From positions 1,751 through 65,750 of IMG/VR virus record IMGVR_UViG_3300010348_001013: DNA of 64,000 bases; one strand, written 5' to 3'. This DNA is from a virus. Below, piece by piece: positions 4,420 to 57,256 of the stretch; position 1 is the stretch's first letter, and each line of letters begins with the position of its first letter. The notes beneath the pieces are model-generated. The model was not told the origin of the DNA. It saw only the letters and a program-made list of their open reading frames with translations, and did not search any database. Made by a program: the position numbers and the translations under genes.

Positions 4420-4437
4420 TCATGTTTCCTTAGTCAT

Positions 4438-5295
4438 CTATTGGGGAAATTGTGATAATATTTCTGTTTCAATATTGTTAATTAGTGTCTGAATTTCAAA
4501 TATTTTATCTGCTGTATCTTCATATGATATTATCGGTGTAATAGTTTGATATTTTGTTATTGATGCCGGGTCAATTATTGTTTGTAAATATGCTGGATTA
4601 TTTTTTATTGTATTAATAGCATTGATTAATTCATTTATTATTACCAAAGAAAATAGACTATATGAATTTAAAATTTGCGGGGAAGTTGATATTAATGTAT
4701 TATTATATCCGCCTGTCCATGAAAATAATTCAATATTTGAACTAGCCTCGTTATTTATAAATGTGATAATATCATTTAAAGCCGTTCTTATTCTTATAAT
4801 ATAATTTGCATGTAATGCGGGGGCTTTTTTATTCAAAGAAACAGTAGGATGTAAATTCTTATATTCTGTAAAATTGACATCCCATTCTACTGGAATATAT
4901 GAAGCATAAATAAGTCCATTTGAGTGGTTAATAAAAAAAGATTCATTTATTGTAACAATATTGTTTGTAGAACCAAATGTATAATCGCTATCGCTTAATT
5001 TAGTAACTGCCCTGGTATTTGGATTAATGTGATAAATTGTAAAAGGAAAAATGTCAGAATCTGTAATATGTATATCGTGAAATATAAATGTTCTAGATAT
5101 GGTATATTTGGTAATAAAATCATTATTCCATAAATCAAAACCATTATCAGGATTGTTATAATAAGGAATGTCTTGTATAACATAGATAAATTCAAATTCT
5201 GGTTTGTTATTTTCAGGTGAATAAATATTATCATCTATTGGATTACAATATGGTTTATACCATAAAGTTTTTTGAAATGTCTCGTTAATGTACAT
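4438..5295 (-). CDS. Hypothetical, probably virion, protein, 285 aa
   Basis: ATG with SD AAGGA; operonic with its neighbours. Confidence 0.55.
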   Translation of the reverse strand: MYINETFQKTLWYKPYCNPIDDNIYSPENNKPEFEFIYVIQDIPYYNNPDNGFDLWNNDFITKYTISRTFIFHDIHITDSDIFPFTIYHINPNTRAVTKLSDSDYTFGSTNNIVTINESFFINHSNGLIYASYIPVEWDVNFTEYKNLHPTVSLNKKAPALHANYIIRIRTALNDIITFINNEASSNIELFSWTGGYNNTLISTSPQILNSYSLFSLVIINELINAINTIKNNPAYLQTIIDPASITKYQTITPIISYEDTADKIFEIQTLINNIETEILSQFPQ

Positions 5296-5306
5296 TATAT
5301 TATCCT

Positions 5307-8300
5307 TTAAACAATAAAATTACTTGAATTTTCCATAGCATTAAAATATGCTATTTTATCGTAAATTATTATATATGATCCAGCTGATAGTGTTTCATTT
5401 GTTCTTAATGTTATGGAATAATAACTATTAGCAATATTTCCTGTAATTTGATGAAATGAAATATTTGTTATAGAATATGAAATTGCTTTATCTATAATAG
5501 TATCATATGCTTTGTTAATATATATATTGTAATAATCTTCTGTTGATATTAAAAATAAACTATTTAAGTTATTTATGTTATATGGAACATGTATTGTAAA
5601 TGTGTTAATTTCTGATGATAGTGTGATTATTCTAGTCTCGTTTTCACATATATTATTTTTTGAAGGGTATACTACTAGATTTCTATAATAATCTGTGCTT
5701 TGTTCATATGGAAGTAATTTAATTGTTTTATATACGTGAGTATCATTACTAAGGTTTGTTGCTTTAATAACAACATAATTTTCCAATAAATTAAATGTTG
5801 GTGGAATGTATTCAAAATATATCTTACCCATTGAATCTGTAATAGCATTAAACTTAAATGTTATTAAACTATTTCGTTCGTATTTAAGTCCGCCTCTATT
5901 TAATGTAAATAATCTATATGTTCCATGCTTTCGTGCCTTTTTAATTATTGAATTCATAAAAAGATTTTTAGACATAACTGTTGTTCTACTCATTACCGGA
6001 TTTAAATAATTGGTAGTATTTGTATTGTCATATATTTTATATCTATAATCATTATTATCAGTTGTTTCATATATTTCACCAACATTATCATGAGTAAATG
6101 TTATTCTATCAAATCCACCCATTGTAATTTTTGACTCATTGTAATCGACATTTATTGTTCTATTTGTTGAATCCTGGTATATTCTATTCATTGAAATTTC
6201 TACCGGTATATTTGAAACTGGTTGATTTTTGTTATCACGAACCAATAGTATAATCGCAATTGTTGCACCGTTAGTATAATCATATTGTGTTTCAATTTGT
6301 AAAAGTCCACCGACCTGTCCACCGGTTTCTTCTGTTTCATTTGTTGAAAATGCCAAAAAATAGTTTGTTAAATTATTATAAAATGGATGGATGTTTAATG
6401 TTACAAAGTTACTTTTGGAATTAATGGAACTATTATATATAACAAACTTATTTACATGTATTTTTGGAATCAATATGACGTTCTCAATTGGATCGTATAT
6501 ATAATTTCTTGAATCTACTTTAAACAAATTTTCTGTTGGGATATCTGTTAATGAAATAATAATAATATATTTATCATCATAATGAGGGTCTAATAGATAT
6601 TTAAAATATTCCCCATCATCTGATAATGTCATATTATCTGTTGTTATTTTTACAGCTTTATATCTATTAAAATAAGCATATAGATATGTCTCATTATCAT
6701 TTCTTCCTATAAATATTCCATCCGATATTTTTGGAATCCAGTTAAAATATTTACTACCAGATAATGACAATAACGATTGATGTAATTCGTTATTTTCGTC
6801 AAAATCAAGAATGTTATTATCTATTATTATATCTTCCATTTGGATATTGCGAATAGATACCAGTTCCAATCCACCATATATTCTTCCACTAATAATATCA
6901 TCTGTTTTTGTAAAATATGAAGAAGATGACCAATGTGGTTCATATACCCCGGTCCCAGATTCCATTATATCTGCTTTTAATAACATACTATTAAAATTAG
7001 CATCTTTCCATGTATAAATATCATTCTCGGTTATATTTAATCTTTCGATATCATGATCAAAACGAATATATTGTTTTGAGAATTCATATGGAAATGAAAA
7101 GGAAACTTCAGCACGATTTAATGTTTCTGAATCTACACAAATAAAAGAAATAGTACTAAATTCAACATCAGTTAAATCATCAGTTTTAACAATAACTGTG
7201 TTTGAATTAATAATAATATTATCAGAACTAATATTAAAACCAGTATCAGTTTTTGCTGTTATTGCATAATTTGAAGATGGAACAAATGGAAATGTAAATA
7301 TCATATTGTCTGGCATTGAAACAACGTTTTCAACCCCGCAATCAATCATAATAATAGATTCTATAAATCTAATAGAATCATTACGTTCTAAGTTATATAT
7401 TGTATTTAATCTTGATCGCAATTGAAAATTATCTTCAAATGGATAATCGTAATAAATACCTGAATTATAGGCTGCAATAGTAAATATATTCCACAATCTT
7501 ACTGGAGAACTATACTGATTAATTTCAAATGACGAAACACAACAATTAACTCCGTCTATATCTGTCATATAATATCTATTAAAAAGATATCTTGTAAAAT
7601 ATAATGTAGACCCATCACATAATATAAAAGACCCATCATTATCAATTGCAAATGAAGATATATTTGTATTAACATTAATTGAATAATCTGGCATTGATGG
7701 AAATGACTTATTTAATAAGTTATATGCTTCAATTACACTATTCCTTAGTAAAAATAAATAGTCGTTAAAGATTTTAATACATTGACATCCTTTTGTTCCA
7801 AGTGGTAATGGAGCAATTATATATTCATCAGTATCTATAGATGAATAATAAAGTATTCCATTAAGTAATGCAAATTTTATTCCAAGTCGTTCATAGTTCA
7901 CAATATCTTGAAAATCATTTGAATAATAATAAAGATTTGCTGTTGATTTTTTAATACATTTTTCTGTTGTCATATATCTAAAACTAATGGTTACGTTTTT
8001 AGTTCCAGTTGGAACGACTAATACATTTGAAACTTTAAAAGTAGAACCAAGAAGTCCCCGAAAATAATCAATAATTTCTTCGGTTAATATGCCTTTATTA
8101 AAGATATCAAATGCTTTATAGTATTCATCCCAATCTGGTGCAGTGTTATCAATTCCAATATATGAAATTATTTCATCAAGATCATCATACCAGAATATTC
8201 CATCATTATTAATGTCAAATCTACTATCATATCCATCTGTTGTAGATTTGTATATTTTTCCAATAGTTGGATATGTTAAAAATGTTACTATATAATCAGG

Positions 8301-8861
8301 AAGTAAGTATATTTCATCATGCAAAAGTTCATCTGTGATAGTGATATTATACTCGTATGATTTATTAATTGTTTCTGTCCCAATGACATCTATTGGGGAA
8401 GTCTTTGTTGTTGATATATTATCATAGTTATATTCCGTTATTGAGTTATTATATATTGCATAAAGTCGGGGGGTATTTGTTGTTGTATCTACGTCTATAT
8501 TTTTAATAAATGCCTTTGCCGGGCTGTATTCTTTATATACATTTAATGATGATGGTATTCCACGAAGGAATTCTGCTTCATTTGCTACTTTTGTTGCTGT
8601 TAAAAGCGAAGTTTCATCTTCTATATTAGCATATGGTGTTATATATGCCATATATGGAATATTAGGATTTGTCTTAAATATATTATCTTCATTGAATATT
8701 TGATTTAATTCTTCTTTTGCCGAGTCATTAATATTAAGAATAGTATTAATGAATATTTCTGTTTCTGTTATAAACCGATTATTTAATCTGCACCATGATG
8801 GTGCGATATATGATAAATAACGTCTTGATATTGGATTATAAATGTTTAATATTCTAGACAT
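5307..8861 (-). CDS. Baseplate/tail protein with dockerin-like Ca-binding repeat and Ig-like segment, 1184 aa
   Basis: DINNDGIFWYDD and DIFNKGIL tandem loops; LVRDNKNQPVSNIPVEI resembles a Big_1-type Ig strand; directly downstream of the baseplate J-like gene. Confidence 0.55.
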   Translation of the reverse strand: MSRILNIYNPISRRYLSYIAPSWCRLNNRFITETEIFINTILNINDSAKEELNQIFNEDNIFKTNPNIPYMAYITPYANIEDETSLLTATKVANEAEFLRGIPSSLNVYKEYSPAKAFIKNIDVDTTTNTPRLYAIYNNSITEYNYDNISTTKTSPIDVIGTETINKSYEYNITITDELLHDEIYLLPDYIVTFLTYPTIGKIYKSTTDGYDSRFDINNDGIFWYDDLDEIISYIGIDNTAPDWDEYYKAFDIFNKGILTEEIIDYFRGLLGSTFKVSNVLVVPTGTKNVTISFRYMTTEKCIKKSTANLYYYSNDFQDIVNYERLGIKFALLNGILYYSSIDTDEYIIAPLPLGTKGCQCIKIFNDYLFLLRNSVIEAYNLLNKSFPSMPDYSINVNTNISSFAIDNDGSFILCDGSTLYFTRYLFNRYYMTDIDGVNCCVSSFEINQYSSPVRLWNIFTIAAYNSGIYYDYPFEDNFQLRSRLNTIYNLERNDSIRFIESIIMIDCGVENVVSMPDNMIFTFPFVPSSNYAITAKTDTGFNISSDNIIINSNTVIVKTDDLTDVEFSTISFICVDSETLNRAEVSFSFPYEFSKQYIRFDHDIERLNITENDIYTWKDANFNSMLLKADIMESGTGVYEPHWSSSSYFTKTDDIISGRIYGGLELVSIRNIQMEDIIIDNNILDFDENNELHQSLLSLSGSKYFNWIPKISDGIFIGRNDNETYLYAYFNRYKAVKITTDNMTLSDDGEYFKYLLDPHYDDKYIIIISLTDIPTENLFKVDSRNYIYDPIENVILIPKIHVNKFVIYNSSINSKSNFVTLNIHPFYNNLTNYFLAFSTNETEETGGQVGGLLQIETQYDYTNGATIAIILLVRDNKNQPVSNIPVEISMNRIYQDSTNRTINVDYNESKITMGGFDRITFTHDNVGEIYETTDNNDYRYKIYDNTNTTNYLNPVMSRTTVMSKNLFMNSIIKKARKHGTYRLFTLNRGGLKYERNSLITFKFNAITDSMGKIYFEYIPPTFNLLENYVVIKATNLSNDTHVYKTIKLLPYEQSTDYYRNLVVYPSKNNICENETRIITLSSEINTFTIHVPYNINNLNSLFLISTEDYYNIYINKAYDTIIDKAISYSITNISFHQITGNIANSYYSITLRTNETLSAGSYIIIYDKIAYFNAMENSSNFIV

Positions 8862-9981
8862 TAATGATCTCCGACACTACATATTTTTCATTCCACATAG
8901 GAATGAGATAAGTATTATCTATTGCTTGGATGTTGTTAATTAAAATATTAGTTATATGCCATTTACTGAGATCTACCCGTTCCCCCATTGGTGTGTTTTC
9001 AATGGTAGATTTTATTGCTTCGTTGTCTGTATCAGTTGTATAAATTGTTAATTCTAAATAGGTTGGAAAACAAATATTACAATTTCCAGTTGAATAATTC
9101 TCTAAAATAGCATTTGCAATTGGTTTAATAATATCATCATATGACTTATTGGTTGTTTCAATATAATATGTTGTTGATCCTAACCCATAAAGATTTTCGA
9201 ATTTATGAACATCTACAACATTAGCAATTCTATTAAGCTCACCAATAATAAAATCGTTGTTTTTAATTAATAACGATTGAATCTTAGTATTTAAAACATA
9301 TCTATATTCAGTATCATTCATCTCATTTGTTTGAATTGAAAGGACATATGTATTATTTATAGTAAATATATTACTATTATATACATTTAAATTAATATTG
9401 GATATTAAAAGAGGATTTATTTCAATGGATGTTATTGATGCTGGATATACTGGATAATTATATTCATTGTTCATTACCAAATAAATAGCCCCAGAGAATG
9501 TTGTATTACTTATAATAACGTTTGTTAATGGTCTATATGTATTTGAGTAAATATCCGAAATGTTTATTATTGCTTCTTTTGGAATTATAATTGGTTTAGT
9601 TATATCTTTAAATAGCGTAGCTTTATCGATTGTATTTGATATTCCAACTATAACATTATCGTCGGATAATGAGGTATGTCGATTAAATTTGGTTCTATTT
9701 ACACCAAATTTTTTACCTATAACATCTAAACCATTGGAAGAAGCACTATCTATTGAACGATCATTAATTATAGAACTAATTATTGCATCGTTTGAATAAA
9801 TGTCACTTAACAGACTAACAATGCTATCATAGTCTCTATTAGCTTCTAGATCTGAATATTTATTACCTGTAAAGGTTAAATAAACATAATCTCGAATATC
9901 ATTATTATTCATATTATATACTCCATTAAAATTATACAGAAATCTTTCTAGAATGTAAAACAATGTATTTATCTGGTTCAA
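8854..9981 (-). CDS. Baseplate J-like (wedge) protein, 375 aa
   Basis: IDSASSNGLDVIGKKFGVNR fits the J-family xxAxGxxLDxxGxxxGxxR motif; EMNDTEYRY fits ExDxxYR; ANVVDV...GLGSTTYYI follows. Confidence 0.7.
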   Translation of the reverse strand: MNQINTLFYILERFLYNFNGVYNMNNNDIRDYVYLTFTGNKYSDLEANRDYDSIVSLLSDIYSNDAIISSIINDRSIDSASSNGLDVIGKKFGVNRTKFNRHTSLSDDNVIVGISNTIDKATLFKDITKPIIIPKEAIINISDIYSNTYRPLTNVIISNTTFSGAIYLVMNNEYNYPVYPASITSIEINPLLISNINLNVYNSNIFTINNTYVLSIQTNEMNDTEYRYVLNTKIQSLLIKNNDFIIGELNRIANVVDVHKFENLYGLGSTTYYIETTNKSYDDIIKPIANAILENYSTGNCNICFPTYLELTIYTTDTDNEAIKSTIENTPMGERVDLSKWHITNILINNIQAIDNTYLIPMWNEKYVVSEIINV

Positions 9982-10891
9982 GCTCTCTATTCAATGTAAC
10001 AATTGATGAAATACAATTATCAAGTTTATATGGTTTATTTTCTTGTTTTATTGTGGCTGATTTTAAACCTACAGCATAAACATTATAATATGGAATTTGT
10101 AATGTTAGTGGGAAATATGAACTATATGATAACTCGTGAAAATCAACAATATTATTGTTATATGTATATCTATTTGGATTTATAATGTTTTGGTTTTTAT
10201 CAAGTATTGTTAATGAACCCAAAAAATATGTAATATTATCACTCATAACATAATTATTTTTACTTAAAACATCCACAACATTAATATATTTTGATACTTG
10301 CGTAATAACAATACTAATATAATTGTTTGTTATATAATTTTTAATATCAATAGGAACGTCTGAAAACTCATCATATGTATCAGCATGATAATTATCTAAT
10401 AGAGATTGTTTTATAATATAAACAGGAGGTGGAACATTGTAATTAAACACCAATAGGCTTTTATTTTCAGTAATAACAATTTCAGATTGTAAATCTATTG
10501 TGTTAGTTACAGGATATTCTAGATTTGTTGTTAGGGGTGGAATAATTCCCCCGGGAGCTGAAATATTCATATCCATAATTATATCATCTCGATATAAATT
10601 CAATTTAATGGATATATAATATATACCTGTACTATAATCTTGATTAGTTTCTATCGTTATAATATTATTTATTTCTTCATATGTATATTTAGTGTATATT
10701 TCTTCTATTGCTGCAATTTTTCCAAACAATTCGGCCTTAACATCCCCCGCCAATACAAAATATAATTGAAAATTAATCCCCACAAAAATTTCCCATAATC
10801 TCTGTTGAAGGGTATTATAATCATTTCCAAATAATGTTTTTTCACTTATTAATGTTAAATCACCATCCGAATTTCTGTTAAACAGCTTCAT
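9932..10891 (-). CDS. Putative baseplate wedge protein (gp25/sheath-initiator-like N-terminus), 319 aa
   Basis: N-terminal LFNRNSDGDLTL motif and position just upstream of the J-like gene; weak evidence. Confidence 0.4.
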   Translation of the reverse strand: MKLFNRNSDGDLTLISEKTLFGNDYNTLQQRLWEIFVGINFQLYFVLAGDVKAELFGKIAAIEEIYTKYTYEEINNIITIETNQDYSTGIYYISIKLNLYRDDIIMDMNISAPGGIIPPLTTNLEYPVTNTIDLQSEIVITENKSLLVFNYNVPPPVYIIKQSLLDNYHADTYDEFSDVPIDIKNYITNNYISIVITQVSKYINVVDVLSKNNYVMSDNITYFLGSLTILDKNQNIINPNRYTYNNNIVDFHELSYSSYFPLTLQIPYYNVYAVGLKSATIKQENKPYKLDNCISSIVTLNRELEPDKYIVLHSRKISV

Positions 10892-10992
10892 TAATATGTT
10901 CCCCGCTTATAATATTTCTGTTACAGCAATAATGAAAATCCCCAATAGATGACTCTGTCCCAATGCCCTTTCGTCCATGATATCTATTGGGG

Positions 10993-11547: not shown

Positions 11548-12507
11548 TTATTCGTTTGCATTTAATTTGGATATATATTTATTTAATATTGTCTTTGAAT
11601 ATCTTTTTACTGTTGCTATTTTTGCCGAGTTATCATTATTCACACTACTCGAAGTTGACTGATTTGAAGTTTCGTCATTTGTATCGTCTGAGATTGTTGT
11701 TTTGATATTAATAGATTTTTTTATTGTGGATGTGGCGGTTTTTGAGGTATTATATAGAACATCAACAAAATTTATTAATCCCCCAACTATTGATATCATT
11801 TGCATTACGTTATTTACATTTGTAATTATTTTAATGAAATCTGGAGTTAATCCAACCCATGGAACAACGATATTTGAAATATTTAAACTTTGATTTACAA
11901 CATCTTCTTTTCCAGGTAACATATATGCTGTTTGTTTGTTAATGCTATTAGCTGTTAATTTACTTGTTGTTACTTTAACTTCACTATCATTTATATTAAT
12001 GCCACCATTTGACCCTTGGAGTACAATATTAGATTTTGATAGTCCTATAATAGGAGAATCTTCACCATTAATAAAATAAATTGCGGGGGACTCATCTGTT
12101 TCACCAGCTATCCCCGCATTATTTCTAATATAGTTGAATGACTTTGTTTGTAATATAGGTGTGGCCGTTACAAATTCAAACATGCAGTTATCATTATATA
12201 TAAATGAATCCAATCCGTTATATGATATCGAAACCTCGTATGTTGATATTGTATTGTAATCATAATGAATAATATTTTCATTTTTATAAATTGGTATACA
12301 ATATCTATATATTGTTTTAGGTGCGGTTTTGTCATAATCATCAAATAAATAAGGAATAGTAATTTGTAAATCAACATATGTTGTATATGTGGTCTCATCT
12401 TCATATATTCCTAGTGTTTCTTTGTTTGGAAAAATATTAGTTATCCATTGGGGAACGTTATTTCCTGTAATTAATGTTCCAATTAGTTTTGTTGATTTTT
12501 CTGCCAT
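11548..12507 (-). CDS. Hypothetical virion protein, possible baseplate spike, 319 aa
   Basis: Follows the hub-like gene; short beta-strand/Gly repeats (IIGLSKSNIVLQGSNGGININDSEVKV). Spike role is inference. Confidence 0.35.
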   Translation of the reverse strand: MAEKSTKLIGTLITGNNVPQWITNIFPNKETLGIYEDETTYTTYVDLQITIPYLFDDYDKTAPKTIYRYCIPIYKNENIIHYDYNTISTYEVSISYNGLDSFIYNDNCMFEFVTATPILQTKSFNYIRNNAGIAGETDESPAIYFINGEDSPIIGLSKSNIVLQGSNGGININDSEVKVTTSKLTANSINKQTAYMLPGKEDVVNQSLNISNIVVPWVGLTPDFIKIITNVNNVMQMISIVGGLINFVDVLYNTSKTATSTIKKSINIKTTISDDTNDETSNQSTSSSVNNDNSAKIATVKRYSKTILNKYISKLNANE

Positions 12508-18500: not shown

Positions 18501-21500
18501 ATGAAATATTATTAATAAGTGCTTTGTTTGCTACTACATTTTCAACAGAGAATCCTAATGAAAACAATGTTCTTAATACAACGCTATATTCATTATTAAG
18601 TAAATTGAAAAAAATAGCCACTCTTTCTTCTTGAGTTGGAATAACTAACTTATTATTTTCAATACCAAATTTAGCAACCATTGTATGATAAAGTTTATGA
18701 ATTACTCGTGGTAAACCAGTTAAAATTATAGTATCAAGAGGAATGGCTAGATAATTAATATTTTCATCCCCTTTGACTACATTTAAGGTATTAGATTGAA
18801 CTATAGATGCTGCCACATTGAATAATGAACCAATTGCTTGAATTAATACACATTTACCAACAGATCCTATCATCGAAGCTGATCCAGTTGCACTTATAGA
18901 TGCTATTGCATCCTGAATAACATTTCCGACAATATTAAAAACATTCCCTGTTAATGTTGCTAATTGACTTTGATATTTGTTATCATCTAATTGTGCGACT
19001 TCATCAAATGCGTTTATCGTTGCACCTACCATAATTGAATTGGATATATCCATAAAAAATTCACATATTGAAAACAGAACCAAAAGCTCACCTATCATAT
19101 TGTCTGAAAATTGGGTTGCTAAATTAATATATTTCAAATCGGTAGCATTAATATATTTCATATACCATTTAGCAATATTGGCATCAGGATATTCAGTTGA
19201 AAACAATGATGAAGCATATAACATTGCTATATGATCATCTACATCATATGATTTCGATTCTTTTACTATACTACCACTTGCATAATCATATTTGGTTGGT
19301 AAAATAGATATGATTAATTCACATGCAGAAGTCCCTTCAATCGCCTGTATTTGCATTTGGGAAACAGTACCACTATATATACCAACTGAATTTATGATTG
19401 GATTGGATATTGTTAGATTAATATTTCGAAGATCGGCAGTATCTTTTCTATATGCATCTGAAAGATCTGAAAGTATTGTATAATTTGTTTTTTTAGATGT
19501 TTGACTTGCGGTGTTATACAAAGTATCTAATGTAACTGTTTGGGTTCCTTGGATCTGGGTCAATAGGGTTGATGAAAGCTCTGCGGTATACGAATATTTG
19601 TTATCTATTGGGGAAAGTTGTGAAAATAGAGTTAATACGTCTATTATATCATTATCATTAGCTATATGGAAATATATTTTTATACCTTGTGCGGGGGTCC
19701 CCAGGTTTTGGTAAATGTAATCTGTCATTCCTTCCATTTTAATTGGAATAGATCCGACATTTGCTTCAATGAATTCTATTTTAGATACAGATGGCAAAAA
19801 ACTAATATTACTTATATTTTCGTTATGTTTTAATGTTAAGTCAATTAATTTTTTGGCTTTATTAGTACGTTGTTCATATGGAACGGAAATACCTAATACT
19901 GGAACTTTAGTTTTTTCTTTAGTTTGAAATGCTAAGATGTTCGTTATTTTATTAGCATATGAATATATTGCCGAGCCTATAAATGCTTCCAATATATATA
20001 CATCTGATTGTGTTATCGTAGGTGGAATTTTTGAATTAAGAAATGTTGCTGGCATTATGATACCAGTTGAATCGGCACAATTGATTGGGGTATATTTATT
20101 AAGTTCATTATCTATATATGTTTTTGAAATTACTTTGTATTTTGAAATCACATTGTAAATCAAATCATTGAATGATATGGATTTGTCCGATGTTAAAAAT
20201 GTCATATTAACATAGATATCGCTAGTAGAACAGGATACTTTTGAGTCCGATGTATTATAATAAAAATCCAATTTTATTTTTTTTACTTCGGATGATGTTA
20301 TTAATTTATTTACTTCAATAGATATTAAATCTATTATTTTATTATTGAATGTAAATGTTTCCGATATATTATATGTTGTTATAAATTTAAATATATAATT
20401 GGTCAAAAAGCTATTTAATAAATATTTATTGTTATTATTTAAATCATTCCCATTTAACGTTGATAATGTAAATTTATTTTCAATGTCAGCTAAAAAAGTT
20501 GCTGGGAGTACATATGGTTCTTTATTATAATAAAAAGTTTCGTTAACTTTATTTTTAAGATTTGAAAGCCTAAAATCCAAAAAAGTATAGTCTGTTTTAG
20601 TTGAAATTTTATTAAGAAATAAAGTAAATCCTAAATTTGATGAAGGTATTAAGCCACCAAAAGCTGGCATAAATAAATTAATTGGAGACTCTTTGTTGTT
20701 TTTTATGACTTTTATAGCTAAAATTAGATCCGATAATGTATTAATTGAGTTGAAATTGGCTAACTTAGCAATAGAAGATAATAATGATTTATGAATATTT
20801 AGAATATAATTAAATTGGAATAATATTTTATATAAATCTTCGCTTAGTGAATTATATTTATTAATAAATAGTTTTGCATCTGAAATGACATTTAACCTTA
20901 TTTGTGTGTTTATTGCATTTTTAGTTGCATCGATGAAACTATAGATATATTTTTGACTTTCTGTATCATTATCTAAATTTTCTAAATTAGTATCATTAAT
21001 AAACTGTTCAATTTTTAGCATAAAAAACAAAATCCATAATAGTGTTTGATCAGGAGTTCTTGCGTTGTAGTTTAAATTTTTATTTATCATAATTGGTTGG
21101 GGTAAATCTAATAAAAATTCATTAATAACAGCGAGTTGATTAATTATAACGTTTGGTTTATATAATTTAAATATAAAATCATTTAATGTTTCTAAAACCT
21201 CATTATCTTTCATATAAGAAATTTCTTGGGATTCTTTATAATAAATACTTTCAATAGGTACTAAGTTTCTATGTGAATTATATATATTACATATCCCAAG
21301 AAAAAGTTCAAATAAACTCTTTAGTTTTTCTTTTGATTCACTATCTATAAATGGATCATTATATATCTTTCTATATAAAAGAGGATATGTTTCATTATTT
21401 ATATCATTGTCATTAAATATACCATTAATGTCATCTTTATTATATCCTAAAACCAAAGCCGTTAATGCTATATATGGTAATGACTCGTACACATGATAAG

Positions 21501-25783: not shown

Positions 25784-25944
25784 ATGTCCTCATTTTTTTG
25801 ACCCCCGCACAGCCAAAAAGTCATCTATTGGGGAAATCTCTTTTTTTATTAAAGGTAACAAATTGTGATCATTAAAAGATAACAAGAGGAGATCATTTTA
25901 ACATCCCCAATAGATGTCCGTTGTCTATACTTCCTGTATCTGTG

Positions 25945-33396: not shown

Positions 33397-33490
33397 CTGT
33401 TAAATGCTCCATTAATCATCTATTGGGGATTTTATATTTCAATTCAGTTAATTATATAATAAAAGGTATTAAATGTCTTGTGTGTTTTGT

Positions 33491-41085: not shown

Positions 41086-42093
41086 TTATTCTGATGAATT
41101 TTCATCTTTAATAGAATTATCATTAGTATTTACTCGTTCATATATTGTAACATACTCCCCATCTGTTCCATATTTATTTTTAGCTTTTTCCATGTTTGTT
41201 TTCTCTTCTATAATTTGCTTATTTCGTTGATTAACACGGTCTTTTAGCTCATCAATATCTTCATCAGAAGAATCAACATTTTTATTAATAAGTTTATATT
41301 TAGCTGATATTTCAGGTGTCAATAATAATTGTCTTAGTATTGTATCTCTTCTAGATTGAATTTTTTCATGAATAATAGACGAAGCAGATTCTCCTGGAAT
41401 ATAAGTAATTTCTCCAGATCGTAATACAACACACGATGCCTCTGGATCAACAAGTCCGTTTGTTGACATTTCATTATCCATCATAATATCATAAAGATCT
41501 GTTTCAATTAATGAAACAATCAAACGATAAATTACTATATCATATCTTACACTATTATATTCATCTTTGTTATTATTATCTTGCGGGGTCAATCTTGATG
41601 ATATTGCTTCTAACCATTGGTCACGCAAGTTCATTGCTAATCCCATAGCTAATGGGCATGGTTTTCCAAATGGTTGTTTGTTCATAGCAATAAATGGACA
41701 ATTTAAATTCTTAAATAAACATGTTTTATCCCCACATTTAGGTATAATATGCATAATATATGGATCCAATTCGACTTTTGCCAAATAGGAATCTACCATT
41801 GTTTTCTCATCACTAGTCAAATGCATTTCGTCAAGAATCTCTTTTATTTCTAAACATAAAAGATTATTAGATTTACTAAATCCTGTAATTTGTTGATGAA
41901 CATTGGTTGTTGGTAATGCTTCATTTTGATTTAATAAAACATCATCTGTAACTGGTTCATCTGGTCGTTGCACATCTATTGGGGAATTCTTCGATTCGGC
42001 CTTTTTTGATGATATTTTGGATATTGTTTTTGACGCATTTGGCAAATCAGCAGATAGTGTTTTAATGTTCTTAGTTGGTTTTTTATTTGACAT
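41086..42093 (-). CDS. Cys-cluster protein, candidate terminase small subunit, 335 aa
   Basis: CGDKTCLFKNLNCP...PFGKPCP four-Cys cluster, helical C-terminus, close to terL. TerS role is inference. Confidence 0.4.
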   Translation of the reverse strand: MSNKKPTKNIKTLSADLPNASKTISKISSKKAESKNSPIDVQRPDEPVTDDVLLNQNEALPTTNVHQQITGFSKSNNLLCLEIKEILDEMHLTSDEKTMVDSYLAKVELDPYIMHIIPKCGDKTCLFKNLNCPFIAMNKQPFGKPCPLAMGLAMNLRDQWLEAISSRLTPQDNNNKDEYNSVRYDIVIYRLIVSLIETDLYDIMMDNEMSTNGLVDPEASCVVLRSGEITYIPGESASSIIHEKIQSRRDTILRQLLLTPEISAKYKLINKNVDSSDEDIDELKDRVNQRNKQIIEEKTNMEKAKNKYGTDGEYVTIYERVNTNDNSIKDENSSE

Positions 42094-44332: not shown

Positions 44333-44380
44333 TTTACATGTATATACAGTCATCTATTGGGGAATGATGCGGGGGTTATT

Positions 44381-47245: not shown

Positions 47246-48856
47246 ATGCTTTTGCAAAGAAAGAAAAAACCAAATATTTATGAACTTGACAGTATGCTAC
47301 AAGAAATTAAAACATCATTAAATAAAGTTCACGATGATATTAATTCAAAATCATCAGTTGAAAGATACGATGCAATGGCACAATTTACAAGTAGTAAATT
47401 TGAAAACAAACAGTTTATTGATAGACTAAGAGCTGTAACTGGCTTATCAGAAGAAACATTAATTAAATATAAAAATTTTAATACCTTTTTTGAAAACAGC
47501 CAGGATAAAGATGATTATAAGCTCCCAATAGTTGATTTGTGTCGTGTTGAACGAGCGTATTATTTTGGAGACACATTATTACACAGACGAAAAAGAATAT
47601 TTCTAGAAAAAGCATTTAATGAAGGATATTATCTGGAAAGTCAAAATCAATCAACCAAAGCATATATTGAAAAACGACTGGCATACAATGAATTAATAAC
47701 AGAAAAAAAATGCTGGGATTTATATAATGAAATAATGTCTGATATTATAATGTATGATTATGCTTTGTTGGGATTAAAAAGAAATGATGACTATTCCCCT
47801 GGCTATTCTTATACGATTGGAAGCAAATCATATGAACCAATTTATGCTTTTGATAGATTAGACGTTCCTGTTACATTGTTTTCATGTAAAGATGGAAAGT
47901 ATTTAAGTGCAAAAATGTTCCCAGCACTAAGAAATAAATATATCCCCAATAGAAAAAACTCCCTGCCATTCTTTTATAATTATTTATCAAAATTTTCATC
48001 TGCAACTTATAAACTACAAAATGATCCAATAGAATCCGATTCAGTTCCAATATCAATGGAAAATATTATAATGGCAAGTGATGTAAAACCAGCAGGTCAT
48101 ATTTATCCAATACCAAGTGCTGCAATGTTTATAGAAGATCTACAATTATTGAGAGATGCCGAGGAAGCATTGAGAGAAGTAATATTTCAGGCAGGATTTC
48201 CATTATTACATTTTAAAATAGGATCTGATATGGTTCCAATGAGACCAAATGAAGATCGTTCATTATCATCAAAAATCAAAGCAATGGATAAGAATGCTGT
48301 TTTAATTACAGATCATAGAACTCAAGGTCAACAATTATTAACTGAAGTATATAACCTATCCAAGGATTTGTCATATCTCTGGCAACGTGTTATTGTTGGT
48401 TTGGATTTATCCGACGTTGCATTGGGAATTGGTTCATCAACAAATAAAGGGACTGCTGATATAACAGATAAAATAACTCTTGATGTTACAAAACGCTATC
48501 AAAACATATTTTCAAATTTAATGGAAAAACTATTTGATCAGATGTTACTTGAAGGTGGTCTTAAATTATATAATTTGACTTCTGAAAACAAAGTTTATTT
48601 CAGATTCTCAGAAATAGATATTAATAAAGCAATTTTAAAAGAAAATCACATTTCACAATTATTTATGCAAAACATGATAGATCATAACGAAGCAAGAGCA
48701 AAAATTGGATTATTCAATAAACCAGACGAATCCCAGATGTATGCTAACAAGTACGCTGGAACCAAGTCATCTATTGGGGATCTTGTTAATAATGAAGTTC
48801 AGCCTGAAAATCAGTATGGTAAAAAACAGTCAGCTGCTGAACCTACAAAGAATTGA
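47246..48856 (+). CDS. Portal protein
   Basis: 536 aa, downstream of terL; portal-like segments GFPLLHFKIG, IVGLDLSDVALG.G...NKGTA, FRFSEID and IDHNEARAKIG. Confidence 0.8.
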   Translation: MLLQRKKKPNIYELDSMLQEIKTSLNKVHDDINSKSSVERYDAMAQFTSSKFENKQFIDRLRAVTGLSEETLIKYKNFNTFFENSQDKDDYKLPIVDLCRVERAYYFGDTLLHRRKRIFLEKAFNEGYYLESQNQSTKAYIEKRLAYNELITEKKCWDLYNEIMSDIIMYDYALLGLKRNDDYSPGYSYTIGSKSYEPIYAFDRLDVPVTLFSCKDGKYLSAKMFPALRNKYIPNRKNSLPFFYNYLSKFSSATYKLQNDPIESDSVPISMENIIMASDVKPAGHIYPIPSAAMFIEDLQLLRDAEEALREVIFQAGFPLLHFKIGSDMVPMRPNEDRSLSSKIKAMDKNAVLITDHRTQGQQLLTEVYNLSKDLSYLWQRVIVGLDLSDVALGIGSSTNKGTADITDKITLDVTKRYQNIFSNLMEKLFDQMLLEGGLKLYNLTSENKVYFRFSEIDINKAILKENHISQLFMQNMIDHNEARAKIGLFNKPDESQMYANKYAGTKSSIGDLVNNEVQPENQYGKKQSAAEPTKN

Positions 48857-49541
48857 TGATTTTATATGTTTTACATGATTTAAATTTGGAATTAGATTTG
48901 TTTACACAATAACCATTTGAAATACATAATGGCCCTGCTTTATTAAATGATAGCGGGGCTATATTTTTAACAATTTTAAGAATTTCGATAGCCATTTCCC
49001 TTATTTCCCATTGTGCTGTATTACAAGCTCGTTGTTCGAAAAAATTAAACAATGATCTCCCGTTCATTGTCATTATCAGATTGGTACATGTTGCATTTGG
49101 CAATACAAATCTAGCATCTTCACAAGGTATGTTTAAATTGGTTAGTTTATTATAGGTATCAATTATTTGGTTCATTAATACATTATATAATTCTAATGCT
49201 TGAGGGCTATTAGTAATTGATGCGGGGGTCACAAATTTAAATTGGTCAGGTGTTATTCTGACATGACGTTGTGATTGTTGTGAATATGATGCTATTCTAT
49301 GTCTAACTAACTGATGCGATAGGGCCCGGCTAACATTTTCTATTAGAAAAGTAAATGTTATGTGTTCAAAAGGAGAAAGATGTTTATGTTCTAACAAATA
49401 ATTAATTAAACGTTCAACTTCTTTGTTACTATTAGCTAATTCATATACTTCCCCAATAGATTCTTTCATGTAACATAAATGAGCAGCCATTGCTACCTTT
49501 TTATCAGGCGAAATCGTATGATCAATTAGTGTTATTTTCAT
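48843..49541 (-). CDS. thyX: FAD-dependent thymidylate synthase
   Basis: HLSPFEH, ThyX signature RHRIASYSQQSQR, EDARFVLP, AQWEIR. Confidence 0.97.
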   Translation of the reverse strand: MKITLIDHTISPDKKVAMAAHLCYMKESIGEVYELANSNKEVERLINYLLEHKHLSPFEHITFTFLIENVSRALSHQLVRHRIASYSQQSQRHVRITPDQFKFVTPASITNSPQALELYNVLMNQIIDTYNKLTNLNIPCEDARFVLPNATCTNLIMTMNGRSLFNFFEQRACNTAQWEIREMAIEILKIVKNIAPLSFNKAGPLCISNGYCVNKSNSKFKSCKTYKIINSL

Positions 49542-50329: not shown

Positions 50330-50376
50330 CTCTTTTTTTATTTTCTATTGGGGAAAAATAGAAAATAAAAAAAGAG
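50330..50376. repeat. Perfect 20-bp inverted repeat, 7-nt loop GGGGAAA
   Basis: CTCTTTTTTTATTTTCTATT (50330-50349) and AATAGAAAATAAAAAAAGAG (50357-50376). Confidence 0.9.
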
Positions 50377-50811: not shown

Positions 50812-50936
50812 CTTGGTAGATGAATGAACTATGTTAAACCCCCCCGCTATAACTATTTTTATTCAACGTTTCAATAATAACCCCGCAAAACTCCCCAATA
50901 GATGAAAAAAAAGAATAGATTTTGAATAAATATTAC

Positions 50937-50964: not shown

Positions 50965-51003
50965 TTAAATATAACATATATACTTACTTGGAGGTATAAT
51001 ACT

Positions 51004-53622: not shown

Positions 53623-53634
53623 GGAGTGAATAAT

Positions 53635-55032
53635 ATGATTAAATATAATCCAATTTTATCAGATACTTTTAAAGAACGTTTTCAGAAAATCAAGGTAGCC
53701 GATTTAGCCAAGATTGATGTTAACAATGAGGAAGATCGAAAAAGAGTGACAGATAAACAAGAAGAGTTTGATGAAAGTGCAAAGTTCGTTAGTGATCTTT
53801 GCCATGCAATTGATTCAAATGGTTTGATGCCAGATGGTTCATACATAACTCTTAGAGATTTTGTAACATCGAATGAAATTAAACAATTTGTTGAGCCGGT
53901 AATTGAAACTTATATCAGAAATCCTATTTCTCCTGTAACACAGATTGCTAATTTGTTTGATGAGATTCCTGTTGTCAAAGCTGTTGATGTTGACGTCAAA
54001 TCTTTTGGTAGTTTTGATGTTGCTGAAGTTGCTGAAGGTGGCACTGTTCCAATGAGAATCTTTGATGTAAACGCAACTGGTGAAAGACTAGCATTGGGTT
54101 TCAAAAAATATGGTGTTGGTATTGGTATGACCCAAGAAGCAATAGATGCTGATAGCTGGGGTTTTCTTTCATACTGGATGCAAGAAGCTAGAAATGCTTT
54201 TGCTAGAAATAGAGAAAGAAAGGCGATGGTTGCACTTGATCTTAAGTCAATTATAATTCAAGATAACAATGGACCATCACAACTCGGCCCAACAAGAGGT
54301 AGAGGTATCAGTGGTGCTTTTAATGGAACATTGTCTCCAGCAGATCTTGCAATGGATCTGGCATGGGCAAACATGAGAGACATTTATTATGATACAATTA
54401 TGATCAATCCAATGGCATATATGATGTTTAAACTCTATTTTACTGAGTCAACTACAAGATTACCATCTGATATTAACTTTTACAAACCAGCTAGAGGTAA
54501 AGCTGCTCCTGGTTGGCCATATACAAATAACAAATTCTTTAAACGAGGTCCTGGTGCTTTTGGTAATCCTACTATGACTGACCCTCTTGGACTGCTTGAA
54601 AATGGTTTTCCAACTCTTGCTATGTATGGTGCTACATTTGAGGAAGATATATTTGATACTGGTTCTCCAATAAAAATAATTGTTTCTCCATGGGTTCCAT
54701 ATAAAGCAATAACTGCCGGGGATGCAAAGGATAAATACTTAACCAATCTATATTTAATTGATTCTAATAATGTTGGTGCCTTCTTTAATAGATTTGGTCC
54801 AAAAGTAACCGAATGGGATTCTCCTGCCAATGATGTCAACTTTTGGAAAATAGTTGAGCAATTTGGTATTGGCATATATAATAAAGGCAGTGGTGTTGGT
54901 GTAATTAAGAATATCGTTATTGATTCCAGCTACGATTTTAATTTTACATATAACATCACAACTGAACCAGCAGCTTATCCTGCATACGCTGGTGGCGATC
55001 CTGATGCTATGTTTACTGGATTGTTTGCTTAG
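53635..55032 (+). CDS. Major capsid protein (HK97-fold)
   Basis: VAEVAEGGTVP, KKYGVGIGMTQEAI, ARNRERKA, DTIMINP, IIVSPWVP. ATG 53635 is 8 nt after AAGGAG; a hairpin follows the gene. Confidence 0.9.
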   Translation: MIKYNPILSDTFKERFQKIKVADLAKIDVNNEEDRKRVTDKQEEFDESAKFVSDLCHAIDSNGLMPDGSYITLRDFVTSNEIKQFVEPVIETYIRNPISPVTQIANLFDEIPVVKAVDVDVKSFGSFDVAEVAEGGTVPMRIFDVNATGERLALGFKKYGVGIGMTQEAIDADSWGFLSYWMQEARNAFARNRERKAMVALDLKSIIIQDNNGPSQLGPTRGRGISGAFNGTLSPADLAMDLAWANMRDIYYDTIMINPMAYMMFKLYFTESTTRLPSDINFYKPARGKAAPGWPYTNNKFFKRGPGAFGNPTMTDPLGLLENGFPTLAMYGATFEEDIFDTGSPIKIIVSPWVPYKAITAGDAKDKYLTNLYLIDSNNVGAFFNRFGPKVTEWDSPANDVNFWKIVEQFGIGIYNKGSGVGVIKNIVIDSSYDFNFTYNITTEPAAYPAYAGGDPDAMFTGLFA

Positions 55033-55050
55033 TATACGAATAAATTAATC

Positions 55051-55086
55051 AAGGACAGCGGGGTTAGAGCCCCGCTTGATCCTTTA
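55051..55086 (+). terminator. Stem-loop after the major capsid gene, probable terminator
   Basis: AGCGGGG (55057-55063) pairs with CCCCGCT (55070-55076), extended by AAGGA/TCCTT; short T tail. Confidence 0.6.
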
Positions 55087-55123
55087 ATTATGGTAATTAA
55101 ATCAATTCTAAGGATGGTTAAAA

Positions 55124-56044
55124 ATGAGTAAAGAAAAAATTGTTAACGGAAATGAGCAAAAAGAAAAAACCGAAAACATTAGCACTGACGAACAGCATCA
55201 ATTGGGGAAAATTAAAAATGAAGCTGATAATAATGCCAGTGTTAAAGCAGCTAATCAAATTGAAACAAAAGACAATTTAGACTCTAGTACTGTAAATGAA
55301 ACTGGTTCTAATAAAAAAGAGAATAAAAAAACTAAGGTATATGATGTTAAATTATCCCTGCAAAATGGTGCAATACGATGGGAAAAACGAAATGTTGTAT
55401 TAACTAAAAAGAATCCTACTGCTATAGTTAAATCAGACGATATTGTGCTTTATGAAATAATAAATGCCGGGGTCAGGGGAATGGTTGATAATGACATTCT
55501 CATTAACGATAAACCGGTTACATTTTATTTAAATAAGCTATTAAACAAGAATATACCAGATGAATTTCACGTAAAATTAAACGATCACTCTTTATATTTT
55601 AGAGTTGGAGACGTGGTTTTATCTAGGATTGGCGGGAATAAAATAGATCATGTGTTTAAAAAAACAGATCCCAATCTAATGACAATTATTAAAGGGTTAC
55701 TTTTAAAAGAAATAGTAATTGTTAAGCCAAAAGAAAAGATTGAAGAACCCAAAGAAGTTGAAGATATTAAAGATGTAATAAACGTTGAAAATGCTAAAGT
55801 CGAAATATGTGGCATAATAAACGATATGTTTATATCTAGGGAATTATCATCTTCTGTAATTGAACGCATTTTTAATAATTATTCAGATATAATAGATTTG
55901 AAAGAATTTCTGCCAACAGTAATTCTTGCCGAATTTGAGAGAGCAAAAGAACTCACTAAAGAAAATGATATCCCAATTATTGAAAAACTCTATAATGAGA
56001 CAATGAAAGAATTTGATAAGATAATAAATAAAATATCTAAATAA
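55124..56044 (+). CDS. Hypothetical protein, 306 aa
   Basis: ATG with SD AAGGA; charged low-complexity N-terminus. Confidence 0.6.
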   Translation: MSKEKIVNGNEQKEKTENISTDEQHQLGKIKNEADNNASVKAANQIETKDNLDSSTVNETGSNKKENKKTKVYDVKLSLQNGAIRWEKRNVVLTKKNPTAIVKSDDIVLYEIINAGVRGMVDNDILINDKPVTFYLNKLLNKNIPDEFHVKLNDHSLYFRVGDVVLSRIGGNKIDHVFKKTDPNLMTIIKGLLLKEIVIVKPKEKIEEPKEVEDIKDVINVENAKVEICGIINDMFISRELSSSVIERIFNNYSDIIDLKEFLPTVILAEFERAKELTKENDIPIIEKLYNETMKEFDKIINKISK

Positions 56045-56059
56045 ACATATGGAAAGGCA

Positions 56060-57256
56060 ATGGCATTATTAAATATATTATCCATTGATCCAGAAAATAA
56101 TTCAACAATTTATATTAATCAGCAATTTAAGATAGTGTTTGACAAACAATTAGATCAGTCAAATCTATCCGATTCAATAATGCTAGCAAATGAACATTCT
56201 GTTTTAGTGCCATTAACAATAACATATTCAACCAAAACAATAGATGGAAATGTTGTAGGCGTTGTTAAAGTTGTTCCGAATGTCTTACTCGATATGAATA
56301 CTAAACATACATTGGTATTGCGGGGAGACTTTAATGTAAATGATAATTATTATGATGGTATAAAATCCATTGATAATGATGTATTAAATGGAAATATACT
56401 ATTCAATTATACAACAAACACATTAACATACACACCCCCAAGCGAAGAAGACAATCCTGAAATAATTCCACCAGACGTAGAACAAACAACATTTATTACT
56501 GATATACATTTTAAACCAACAAAGTATCCTAAGACAATATTTACTAAGGTTGAACCGTATATATATGTTATTGTTCCCGACGCAATAACCAAAACAACAA
56601 CGGAGTATTTTCACGTATATTCAGATAATTTGCTTAGCGGGGGTAATAGCGAAGAAGACATTACAATCGAGTCTCAAGATAATTATGTGTTTATAACATT
56701 AAATAATTTTGTTAATTCAGATAATACTTTTAGAAACCGTAAGATTACAATATATTTAGACGAAGGTGCGATAGAAACCAATATGGGTGTTACCCCCGCA
56801 ATTTCTTATTATTATTATTCCCCAATAGATGTCTTTTTCATAACACCCGAGTCCGTGAGATCACATTTAGCAAATGGTGATTCTCTTAGTGATGATGAAG
56901 TATATTCAATTGTTTATAAAGAATCAATAGCAATTTATACAAATCCAGCGTTTTTTTCAACTTCATATCCAACGGTATTTTTTTATTTAAGTGAGAAGTA
57001 TATTTTATTGAAACTTAATAAAGAAAGAATGGCCGGGACAATTATGTCATCAAATGGTATAAAATCTCAAACTTTGCTTGGTGCTAGTATAACATTTCAT
57101 TCACCAAGTGAAAATAATGTCCAAATGACATTATTAAACAATGAACTTTATACCATTGAAACTGAAATGAAGGCTTTATTGAATAGATATGGATGTAGTG
57201 CTGTTAAGAGTTTATATGATATTGGATATCCGATAGAATGGCGAAGTGATGTATAA
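56060..57256 (+). CDS. Ig-like domain protein / putative head-tail connector, 398 aa
   Basis: N-terminal ILSIDPENN...IVFDKQLDQSNL...VPNVLLDMNTKHTLVL resembles Big_5; helical adaptor-like C-terminus (KSQTLLGASITF). Confidence 0.55.
   Translation: MALLNILSIDPENNSTIYINQQFKIVFDKQLDQSNLSDSIMLANEHSVLVPLTITYSTKTIDGNVVGVVKVVPNVLLDMNTKHTLVLRGDFNVNDNYYDGIKSIDNDVLNGNILFNYTTNTLTYTPPSEEDNPEIIPPDVEQTTFITDIHFKPTKYPKTIFTKVEPYIYVIVPDAITKTTTEYFHVYSDNLLSGGNSEEDITIESQDNYVFITLNNFVNSDNTFRNRKITIYLDEGAIETNMGVTPAISYYYYSPIDVFFITPESVRSHLANGDSLSDDEVYSIVYKESIAIYTNPAFFSTSYPTVFFYLSEKYILLKLNKERMAGTIMSSNGIKSQTLLGASITFHSPSENNVQMTLLNNELYTIETEMKALLNRYGCSAVKSLYDIGYPIEWRSDV

Follow-up and report, generated by a model that had tools for sequence, protein, structure and literature searches.

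A 15-nt asymmetric word repeated at gene boundaries in an almost unannotated phage genome: a possible binding site of a phage regulator

The phage record and its repeated word

The genome considered here, that of an uncultured phage of anaerobic digesters, is represented by IMG/VR record IMGVR_UViG_3300010348_001013 (G000), which is 65,750 nt long and classed as linear. Its completeness is estimated by CheckV at 56%, and so about 44% of the genome lies outside the record. We analyzed one continuous stretch of 64,000 nt, bases 1751-65750 of the record, which is called the window below; coordinates refer to the window unless the record is named. Copies of a short word, ATCTATTGGGG, are scattered along this DNA on both strands, and a large part of them sit at the borders between genes. 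The present analysis concerns the number, placement and orientation of these copies and the possible role of the word.

Genes were taken from our own map based on open reading frames (ORFs), in which non-coding DNA makes up 2341 nt, or 3.56% of the record. The genes that could be named encode the large terminase (TerL), the portal, the major capsid protein and ThyX, together with a small winged helix-turn-helix (wHTH) protein (Table 1). The giant ORFs (3033, 2483, and 2008 aa) and most of the other ORFs have no match in Pfam or PHROGs, and the record contains neither an Rfam family match nor a tRNA detected by ARAGORN.

Number of copies and consensus of the word

The window contains 14 exact copies of ATCTATTGGGG and the whole record contains 15, ten on the plus and five on the minus strand. 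A first-pass annotation, made from the letters of this DNA, had reported the 14 copies; we found every one of them at the coordinates and on the strands it gave, and its strand counts (nine of 12 copies on the plus strand in the left part, none of two in the right part) are correct. The 15th copy lies at record 1317-1327 on the plus strand and has an inverted partner with one mismatch at record 1275 on the minus strand. Two 10-mer copies, 47944 (minus) and 50343 (plus), and two one-mismatch copies, 12443 and 55197 (both plus), are also present as had been described. A further one-mismatch copy at 898 (plus) may be due to chance.

The excess of the word over expectation is large. With no more than one mismatch allowed, the window has 19 copies against 0.91 expected, and none of 100 dinucleotide shuffles reached 19. 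The null model that takes coding into account was built by shuffling synonymous codons within each ORF and shuffling the intergenic bases, in 300 replicates. On average it produced 0.28 copies, with never more than 3, so that the 15 copies observed correspond to about a 50-fold excess. The enrichment claimed earlier therefore withstands a codon-preserving test, while the hand estimate of about 0.01 expected copies that went with it was too low. The reversed word, used as a control, has no copies in the record. Ranking of k-mers led to the same result, since the family of this word is the most repeated one, simple repeats excepted, at each k from 9 to 12. The density of the word in the phage amounts to 228 per Mb.

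The bases around the 11-mer are conserved as well. Among the 15 exact copies an A follows GGGG in 14, a C precedes ATCT in 12, and a G stands three bases before ATCT in 11. These conserved flanking positions show that the full word is about 15 nt long. It is asymmetric and not palindromic, and its C-rich strand reads T-CCCCAATAGAT-G-W-C.

Table 1. Copies of the word and named genes in the window
Position	Strand	Feature	Setting
4436..4446	+	exact copy; sense (-) strand reads CCCCAATAGAT	contains stop TAG of ORF 4438-5295; ends 17 nt before ATG of ORF 2365-4419
8388..8398	+	exact copy	inside ORF 5307-8861; SPID, residue 155 of 1184; second module ATTGGGACAG at 8375-8384, next after the copy in sense direction
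10940..10992	-/+	inverted pair 10940(-)/10982(+), 31-nt spacer	gap between ORFs 10993-11424 and 9932-10891
12443..12453	+	one-mismatch copy ATCCATTGGGG	inside ORF 11548-12507
19603..19613	+	exact copy	inside 3033-aa ORF; SPID, residue 669
25823..25915	+/-	inverted pair 25823(+)/25905(-), 71-nt spacer; arms in opposite order to 10940/10982	161-nt gap between 2483-aa ORF and ORF 23735-25783
33418..33428	+	exact copy	76-nt divergent gap (33397-33472); 21 nt upstream of ATG of 2483-aa ORF (-), 44 nt upstream of ATG of ORF 33473-35047 (+)
41974..41984	+	exact copy	inside ORF 41086-42093; SPID, residue 37 of 335; variable N-terminal segment
42593-44332		large terminase (TerL)	
44352..44362	+	exact copy	48-nt gap after TerL; same-strand GCGGGG 6 nt beyond
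47246-48856		portal, 536 aa	
47944..47954	-	10-mer copy TTCTATTGGGG	inside portal ORF
48769..48779	+	exact copy	variable C-terminal tail of portal; SIGD, residue 508 of 536; 64 nt past stop of convergent thyX gene
48843-49541	-	ThyX	
49451..49461	-	exact copy	inside thyX; SIGE, residue 27
49551-49868	-	wHTH protein, 105 aa	weak replication-initiator WH1 / DnaD-type matches
50330..50376	+	perfect 20-bp palindrome	left arm and 7-nt loop (GGGGAAA) carry 10-mer copy 50343-50353
50893..50903	-	exact copy	1135-nt non-coding region; 33 nt upstream of TTGACA-N16-(TGa)TATAAC promoter-like site of head operon; same-strand GCGGGG 6 nt beyond; with site 50334-50354 forms 21-nt inverted repeat, 86% complementary
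53626-55032		major capsid protein	
55197..55207	+	one-mismatch copy ATCAATTGGGG	inside ORF 55124-56044
56820..56830	-	exact copy	inside ORF 56060-57256; SPID, residue 254 of 398; same-strand GCGGGG 20 nt beyond

Position of the copies relative to genes

Eight of the 15 exact copies lie wholly within the small non-coding part of the record, which is about a 16-fold enrichment (binomial P = 1.3e-8). A ninth copy, the one at 4436, overlaps a stop codon TAG, and the remaining six are inside genes. The statement of the first-pass annotation that copies gather at gene boundaries thus holds, with seven window copies wholly intergenic and the copy at 4436 touching the stop. From the side of the gaps the picture is similar: the word is found in six of the 11 gaps of at least 40 nt and also in the 18-nt gap at 4420. 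Gaps free of the word carry classical GC-hairpin terminators (55033-55123 and 61636-61768) or sigma-A-like promoters (42470-42592). Within a 40-kb block of virion genes, most of the few boundaries between genes bear this one 15-nt word. A general scan for promoters and terminators gave counts near shuffle expectation.

These figures depend to a small degree on the gene map. In one public gene call (P0010, 362 aa) ORF 41086-42093 starts 27 codons earlier, which would leave slightly less non-coding DNA and make the intergenic enrichment stronger. If that start upstream of the ATG at 42093 holds, the 82-nt gap 42094-42175, which has a GGCGGGGG...CCCCTGCC hairpin, may be coding.

Start codons follow the C-rich form of the word at distances of 17, 21, 39, and 100 nt in the case of ORFs 2365-4419, 25945-33396, 23735-25783, and 51004-52506, respectively. 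Altogether the distances from the word to the next ATG are 17, 21, 39, 61, 90, and 100 nt, with the Shine-Dalgarno (SD) sequence outside the word. Such an arrangement is what could be expected if the word were a promoter, or the core of one, for machinery of the phage itself, namely a putative giant virion RNA polymerase (RNAP) or a sigma-like factor. The gaps at 4420 and 33397, in which we see no good sigma-A-like promoter in the sequence, speak for this version, and so does a weak Atlas lead that connects the 2483-aa protein with RNA_pol_Rpb1_2 clusters (score 0.80).

The orientation of the copies does not follow the genes in the way a promoter must. Among the ten exact single copies the C-rich strand is in the mRNA sense in seven and opposite to it in three (44352, 48769, and 49451). 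When imperfect copies are counted, 13 of 20 are sense and seven antisense by the C-rich orientation, and by the G-rich orientation they divide about half and half. Moreover, six of the 15 copies are intragenic, promoters at the two cassette pairs described below would face each other 31 nt apart, and no sigma domain was found in the record. The polymerase itself is also in doubt. ORF 25945-33396, which encodes the 2483-aa protein, has no Pfam, PHROG or Protein Data Bank (PDB) sequence match; the Atlas lead to clusters with RNA_pol_Rpb1_2 (PF00623) comes from the residues around a DFDSD motif and is the sole hint, and the identification of this protein as an RNAP was not confirmed. For the one virion RNAP of this general type that has been studied, gp66 of phage phi14:2, which serves early genes, the early transcripts showed no common upstream motif (bioRxiv 10.1101/2020.03.07.982082), and the window here holds virion genes. 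On these grounds the phage RNAP promoter proposed by the first-pass annotation is disfavoured, and we regard a promoter role for the word as quite improbable.

Inverted pairs, the repeated cassette and RNA folding

At three loci the word forms inverted pairs: record 1275/1317, window 10940/10982, and window 25823/25905. The first two (record 1275-1328 and window 10940-10992) are copies of one cassette of about 55-60 nt with a conserved spacer of 31 nt. They are placed between unrelated genes, and the proteins encoded downstream are not similar to each other (BLASTP E = 2.3); the cassette at record 1275-1328 occupies the space between a stop codon and the following start. A shortened form of the cassette at 8375-8398 shares its second module, ATTGGGACAG. 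The distances between the centres of the paired words, calculated from the coordinates, are 42 and 82 bp, that is, about 4 and 8 helical turns.

Both window pairs can fold when read as sense RNA. The pair 10940/10982 gives an 11-bp stem followed by AUUUU (-23.1 kcal/mol, z -3.25), and the pair 25823/25905 gives a long stem followed by a U-run (-37.3 kcal/mol, z -3.28), the stems of the two measuring 11-16 bp. The possibility that the word acts in RNA has to be considered here: hairpins of the pairs would terminate, attenuate or process the transcripts of virion genes, and the single copies would be half-sites or decayed pairs. The repetition of the cassette at record 1275-1328 agrees with it, as do the PeSL cassettes of T4-type phages, which combine GGGG...CCCC stem-loops with regulation (PMC2839356). 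The record 1275-1328 cassette nevertheless has an arm mismatch that is not compensated and an unexceptional fold (z -1.32). Ten of the 15 exact copies are unpaired, and no structure was seen in the five single-copy sites that were folded as RNA (z from +1.16 to -1.13). Loops of 31 and 71 nt are not typical for intrinsic terminators, and single copies are found in both orientations relative to mRNA. An RNA hairpin role thus fits three pairs only, and for the word as a whole we consider it improbable.

Strand orientation, spacing and the large non-coding region

Up to 48.8 kb the exact single copies are plus without exception, and from 49.4 kb onward they are all minus, seven and three in number (eight and three with the copy at record 1317). 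A perfect pattern of two strand blocks has a chance of 0.020 for n=10 and 0.011 for n=11. The word does not alternate between strands. The 13 loci are also spaced more evenly than random ones, with a coefficient of variation (CV) of 0.54 against a random mean of 0.89; only 2.3% of random sets are as even. The imperfect copies 47944 (minus) and 55197 (plus) break the two-block pattern.

The switch of strand occurs 0.4-1 kb from the only large non-coding region, 49869-51003 (1135 nt), which adjoins the wHTH gene. This region includes perfect 20-bp palindromes (50330-50376 and 50505-50550), a threefold cluster of CCTAGG, a CT-rich tract and direct repeats: 29-nt units 41 nt apart (50007 and 50048) and ACTTAGTACTAG, present twice. 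The first palindrome folds well (-24.1 kcal/mol, z -6.24). The region looks origin-like. The two copies of the word within it, 50343 (plus) and 50893 (minus), face away from each other. Contigs from RNA runs cover 50389-50932 deeper than the neighbouring thyX and wHTH genes; these contigs are unstranded.

A second G-run word, (T)TGCGGGG(G)T, accompanies the first. The window has 35 copies of GCGGGG between 117 and 63834 (for example 44369-44375 and 50881-50886), about eight of them intergenic, and their strand split is 18:6 up to 49.2 kb and 6:5 beyond that point. In four places GCGGGG and CCCCGC make up an inverted pair that forms a hairpin, such as the terminator-like one at 55060-55075 after the capsid gene. 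At four of the 17 copies of the 10-mer core GCGGGG follows on the same strand within 40 nt downstream; the random mean is 0.19 and none of 5000 random sets reached four. Both words are enriched in intergenic DNA, and when this is allowed for the coupling weakens to roughly P = 0.02, which is an estimate. The sites 44349-44388 (plus) and 50867-50906 (minus) share 27 of 40 bases.

These observations bear upon the most serious rival explanation, a polar signal at the DNA level for replication, recombination or nicking. It could be a Chi-like site for the host AddAB/RecBCD nuclease, a site-specific nick site, or a signal for a replication fork or translocase. The words would then form two opposed groups around 49-51 kb or so, and intergenic sites would simply be the cheapest fit for a 15-nt word in a genome that is 96% coding. 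The strand blocks, the even spacing, the strand split of GCGGGG and its coupling to the word all speak in favour of such a signal. The same can be said of the place of the switch, next to the palindromes, the repeats and a gene that looks like a replication initiator, and of the two words that face apart there. Nick-associated words of 9 nt are in fact known in phages, although they are on one strand only and 88% coding, without intergenic enrichment (PMC11780129); here the enrichment is about 16-fold and both strands are used.

Other features fit the polar signal poorly. Known Chi and KOPS words have 5-8 nt and are frequent in the host, while this word has 11-15 nt and does not exceed 7 copies in any of the 401 genomes searched (see below). 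In addition to the imperfect copies that break polarity, the exact copy 49451 (minus) is to the left of the origin-like region, near 49 kb the cumulative GC skew does not turn, and inverted pairs are not expected from such a signal. The polar Chi/KOPS-like site suggested in the first-pass annotation may still hold in view of the two strand blocks; the length of the word, its intergenic position and its rarity in the bacterial genomes searched depart from that type. We regard a polar signal in the broad sense as somewhat unlikely, but of all the rivals it deserves attention most. A narrower version, which on the sequence data we think rather unlikely, is that the word may be a 15-nt polar signal of a kind undescribed for phages, set at roughly regular intervals of 2.4-8.6 kb in two opposed strand blocks that point away from the origin-like region near 49-51 kb, often coupled to GCGGGG, and kept by relatives that move it. 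Its readers would be, for example, a host nuclease with a long Chi-like word, primosome or clamp loading, or a programmed nick.

Origin of the coding copies and variation between strains

The exact copies inside genes encode SPID in four genes and SIGD or SIGE in two, in agreement with the earlier reading of the translations. The shared SPID frame is uninformative because the C-rich strand carries TAG and TGA in the other two frames. For the same reason a frame-locked SPID peptide was dropped as an explanation of the repeats.

At two of the six coding copies we could compare insertion with substitution at the protein level. At the portal site (48769) relatives with 70%, 51%, and 51% identity have other residues, the two closest aligning without a gap and the third with a gap of one residue. 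At the site in the 335-aa protein (41974) relatives with 70% and 57% BLASTP identity lack the word, and one of them has a one-residue gap. Since the relatives align at both sites with at most a one-residue gap, both copies arose in place, by substitution at tolerant positions and not by insertion. At these two coding copies the positions of the word are not conserved over the evolutionary distance compared. The thyX copy, at residue 27, falls before residues 40-200, the part of the protein for which solved ThyX structures give an alignment. In seven proteins of relatives (3493 residues) SIG[DE]/SPID is encountered twice against 0.22 expected in shuffles (P = 0.02), a weak hint which we did not use as evidence. 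Both cases are SIGE, the peptide encoded by the word in its G-rich reading, at residue 36 of P0005 and residue 32 of P0013, relatives of the portal and of ORF 41086-42093; these positions are variable, and the phage studied here differs there. This hints that relatives may use the same word at shifted places.

Variation between strains was followed in four public runs, three of RNA and one of DNA, available as assembled contigs, which cannot show the starts, ends or strand of RNA; stretches without RNA cover prove nothing. Among the base differences listed for the four runs none falls inside a copy. The copy 44352 is intact in another strain (run X5), where it lies between indels at 44340 and 44366, and in runs X15 and X16 a change in the length of an A-run at 50904 abuts the copy 50893, which is intact too. 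No joints or ends of molecules were seen at copies in these contigs. The two palindromes are also the places of contig breaks, near 50376 and 50515, in the DNA run as well, and we read these as assembly breaks, not ends of transcripts.

Contigs from other samples match the record up to 44309 (X15 and X16) or 44489 (X5) and continue with unlike sequence. Further loose contig ends are at 44964, 45831, and 47110, and from strain to strain the 956-aa gene that follows TerL is apparently either replaced or very variable.

One more explanation can be weighed with these data: a small selfish or recombination cassette of MITE-like or PeSL-like type, moving from one gene boundary to another, would have the word as its end. 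The cassette present twice between unrelated genes, its shortened form at 8375-8398, and the divergence of other strains at 44309 and 44489, near the copy 44352, could be understood in this way. The word came by substitution, not insertion, at both coding copies compared, most copies share nothing beyond the 15 nt, and no target-site duplications were seen. With no joints at copies in the four runs and no second genome that has the cassette, we find a mobile cassette very improbable.

Relatives, host and occurrence of the word in other genomes

By terminase the nearest isolated phages are Moorella phage MTATph1 and Bacillus jumbo phages, with 22-28% identity. Because these are its nearest terminases, the phage is, by this marker, not crAss-like. 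Closer homologues do exist, at 77% and 60% identity for TerL and at 70% and 51% for the portal. No close relative was found among viral contigs with TerL, the TerL alignment (27-31% matches), the 2483-aa protein or the portal alignment, nor among the genome contigs scanned. Metagenome contigs yielded one 7.6-kb fragment (L123) with 99% identity, which keeps the copy at 41974. In ORF 61769-63028, residues 19-50 have a sub-threshold Pfam match to Trans_coact, the phage late-transcription coactivator (E=0.011, 16 bits against a cut-off of 25).

Public sequencing data place the phage in digesters, biogas fermenters, wastewater, activated sludge and soil, with 20 runs from 12 studies containing it. 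Among the 20 are four RNA (metatranscriptome) runs, in which about half of the words sampled from the 9.1-kb stretch used for the search are present.

Ribosome-binding sites are of the GGAG or GGAGG type, with strong SD sites ahead of most genes, and the head operon is preceded by TTGACA-N16-(TGa)TATAAC (50937-50964) and then by GGAGG and ATG (50990-51006). These expression signals are Firmicute-like and suggest that host RNAP transcribes the head genes. From the ribosome-binding sites and the promoter-like site ahead of the head operon we infer a probably Firmicute-like host.

The word was searched for in other genomes. Its 14-mer form gave, among the matches listed, only single scattered matches in viral contigs, and from 185,579 species genomes the 17-mer form yielded 19 matches, all single. 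A second copy is absent from each of the 133 foreign loci among the matches listed (111 from the viral pattern search, 3 from the TerL alignment, and 19 from genome contigs). The inverted-pair pattern with a spacer of 20-50 nt has 0 matches, and no second genome with the cassette was found. For the 11-mer we used 401 genomes of the class to which belongs the genome whose contig is titled Clostridium sp. CAG:217; one of the 401, G097, is unpublished. At least one copy occurs in 231 of them, none has more than 7, and the highest density is about 2 per Mb, compared with the 228 per Mb of the phage. The word is specific to this phage within the set of genomes searched, with no clustered copies elsewhere, and the equal frequency in bacterial chromosomes that would have spoken against a phage signal was not observed in them.

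Possible role of the word

We tentatively propose, with confidence somewhat below even, that the word may be the binding site of a phage regulator that acts at gene boundaries. A protein would read the word as DNA, with an effect on transcription. This reading derives from the intergenic enrichment, the operator-like positions, the asymmetric footprint, the unstructured single copies and the helical phasing. As the five single-copy sites folded have no RNA structure, it is probably the word itself that is read, and its size of about 15 nt fits the footprint of a protein. The tolerant spots taken by coding copies, the survival of two copies next to indels in other strains, and the rarity of the word in the bacterial genomes searched also speak for this reading. 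Operator-like positions are represented by the copy 33418 in the divergent gap and by the copy 33 nt upstream of the promoter-like site of the head operon. To our knowledge, none of the consensus sequences of the IHF, DnaA, Spo0A, and CcpA boxes resembles the word.

The binder would be a sequence-specific DNA-binding protein, probably encoded by the phage either in the 44% or so of the genome outside the record or among its unannotated ORFs. It would act on gene expression at the gene boundaries of virion operons as a roadblock or insulator, a repressor or an activator, and, at distances of about 4 and 8 turns, the two words of an inverted pair could be bound cooperatively from the same side of the helix.

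The first-pass annotation had also inferred a protein-binding signal. Its general part, a selected signal that is read in a sequence-specific manner, is well supported by the 50-fold excess, the approximately 16-fold intergenic enrichment and the 15-nt consensus, while its specific candidates fared unequally. In particular, an operator of the wHTH protein finds no support, as the resemblance of this protein to WH1/DnaD is weak and the region next to its gene holds other, more iteron-like repeats.

Several points weigh against a regulator at gene boundaries. No Sigma70_r2 or HTH_3 domain was found in the record, no repressor-like match to Pfam or PHROGs was obtained in the 56% of the genome it covers, and the only wHTH protein looks, weakly, like a replication initiator. 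Six copies are inside long genes without an obvious regulatory target. Orientation is not tied to transcription, with seven of the ten exact single copies one way, unlike stoperators, and a plain operator model predicts neither the two-block polarity (0.011-0.020) nor the even spacing. At both coding sites compared the relatives lack the word at the same places.

For a phage that is almost entirely unannotated, the word offers a handle for finding its regulator, or the protein that reads it in replication or recombination, and may help in defining the transcription units of a lineage in which homology is of no use. If the strand polarity is real, the word would be an orienting signal of a type new for phages.

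Comparison with known systems

The DUS of Neisseria, the USS of Pasteurellaceae and Chi/KOPS are likewise exact short words placed at tolerant codons, with inverted pairs at gene ends and a possible polarity of orientation, but they are spread over the whole host chromosome. In contrast, none of the 401 genomes has more than 7 copies of the word described here, and its 17-mer form is only single in the 185,579 species genomes.

Repeated intergenic cassettes between unrelated genes are known from T4-type phages, whose PeSL elements of about 100 bp have a sigma-70-like promoter and GGGG/CCCC stems (PMC2839356), and from the intergenic repeats of halovirus HF2 (PMC8707807). The cassettes of the present phage are similar in their position, and GGGG-CCCC pairing is found in its three pairs. 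They differ from PeSL in that no sigma-70-like promoter was seen in the cassettes and most copies are bare 15-nt words, six of them in genes.

The start-associated sequences (SAS) and extended SAS of Cluster K phages are 13-bp asymmetric words lying 3-7 bp from the start, with an SD core, at non-structural genes and in one orientation (PMC3203893). Like these, the word lies at gene boundaries, in some cases over the upstream stop, has a subset with inverted repeats and is absent from host genomes (in our case, lacks clustered copies in the genomes searched). It differs from them in the distance from the start, here 17-100 nt, and in the absence of SD from the word.

The nick-associated word WACTRTGAC of Pseudomonas phage Rembedalsseter and tf-like phages, which have localized single-strand interruptions, is reported without a known function (PMC11780129) and is also a lineage-specific exact word with about 13-15 copies per genome, far above chance. 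It keeps to one strand and is 88% coding, whereas here ten copies are plus and five minus, and 8-9 of the 15 are in the 3.6% of non-coding DNA.

The operators and stoperators of Cluster A mycobacteriophages, bound by L5 gp71 or the TipsytheTRex repressor, are asymmetric 13-15-bp words at many sites, whose orientation strictly tracks transcription (PMC9283540). Here three of the ten exact single copies are opposite, six copies are deep in genes, inverted pairs are present, and no helix-turn-helix repressor was found in 56% of the genome. Since the rule of orientation fails and no repressor is seen in that available part of the genome, we do not file the word as a member of the stoperator family. 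At the same time it shares with stoperators the asymmetry, the many well-conserved copies over the whole genome and their location both in promoter regions and in the short spaces between genes, where some are in contact with a stop codon, and the Cluster A operators and stoperators would be its closest functional parallel.

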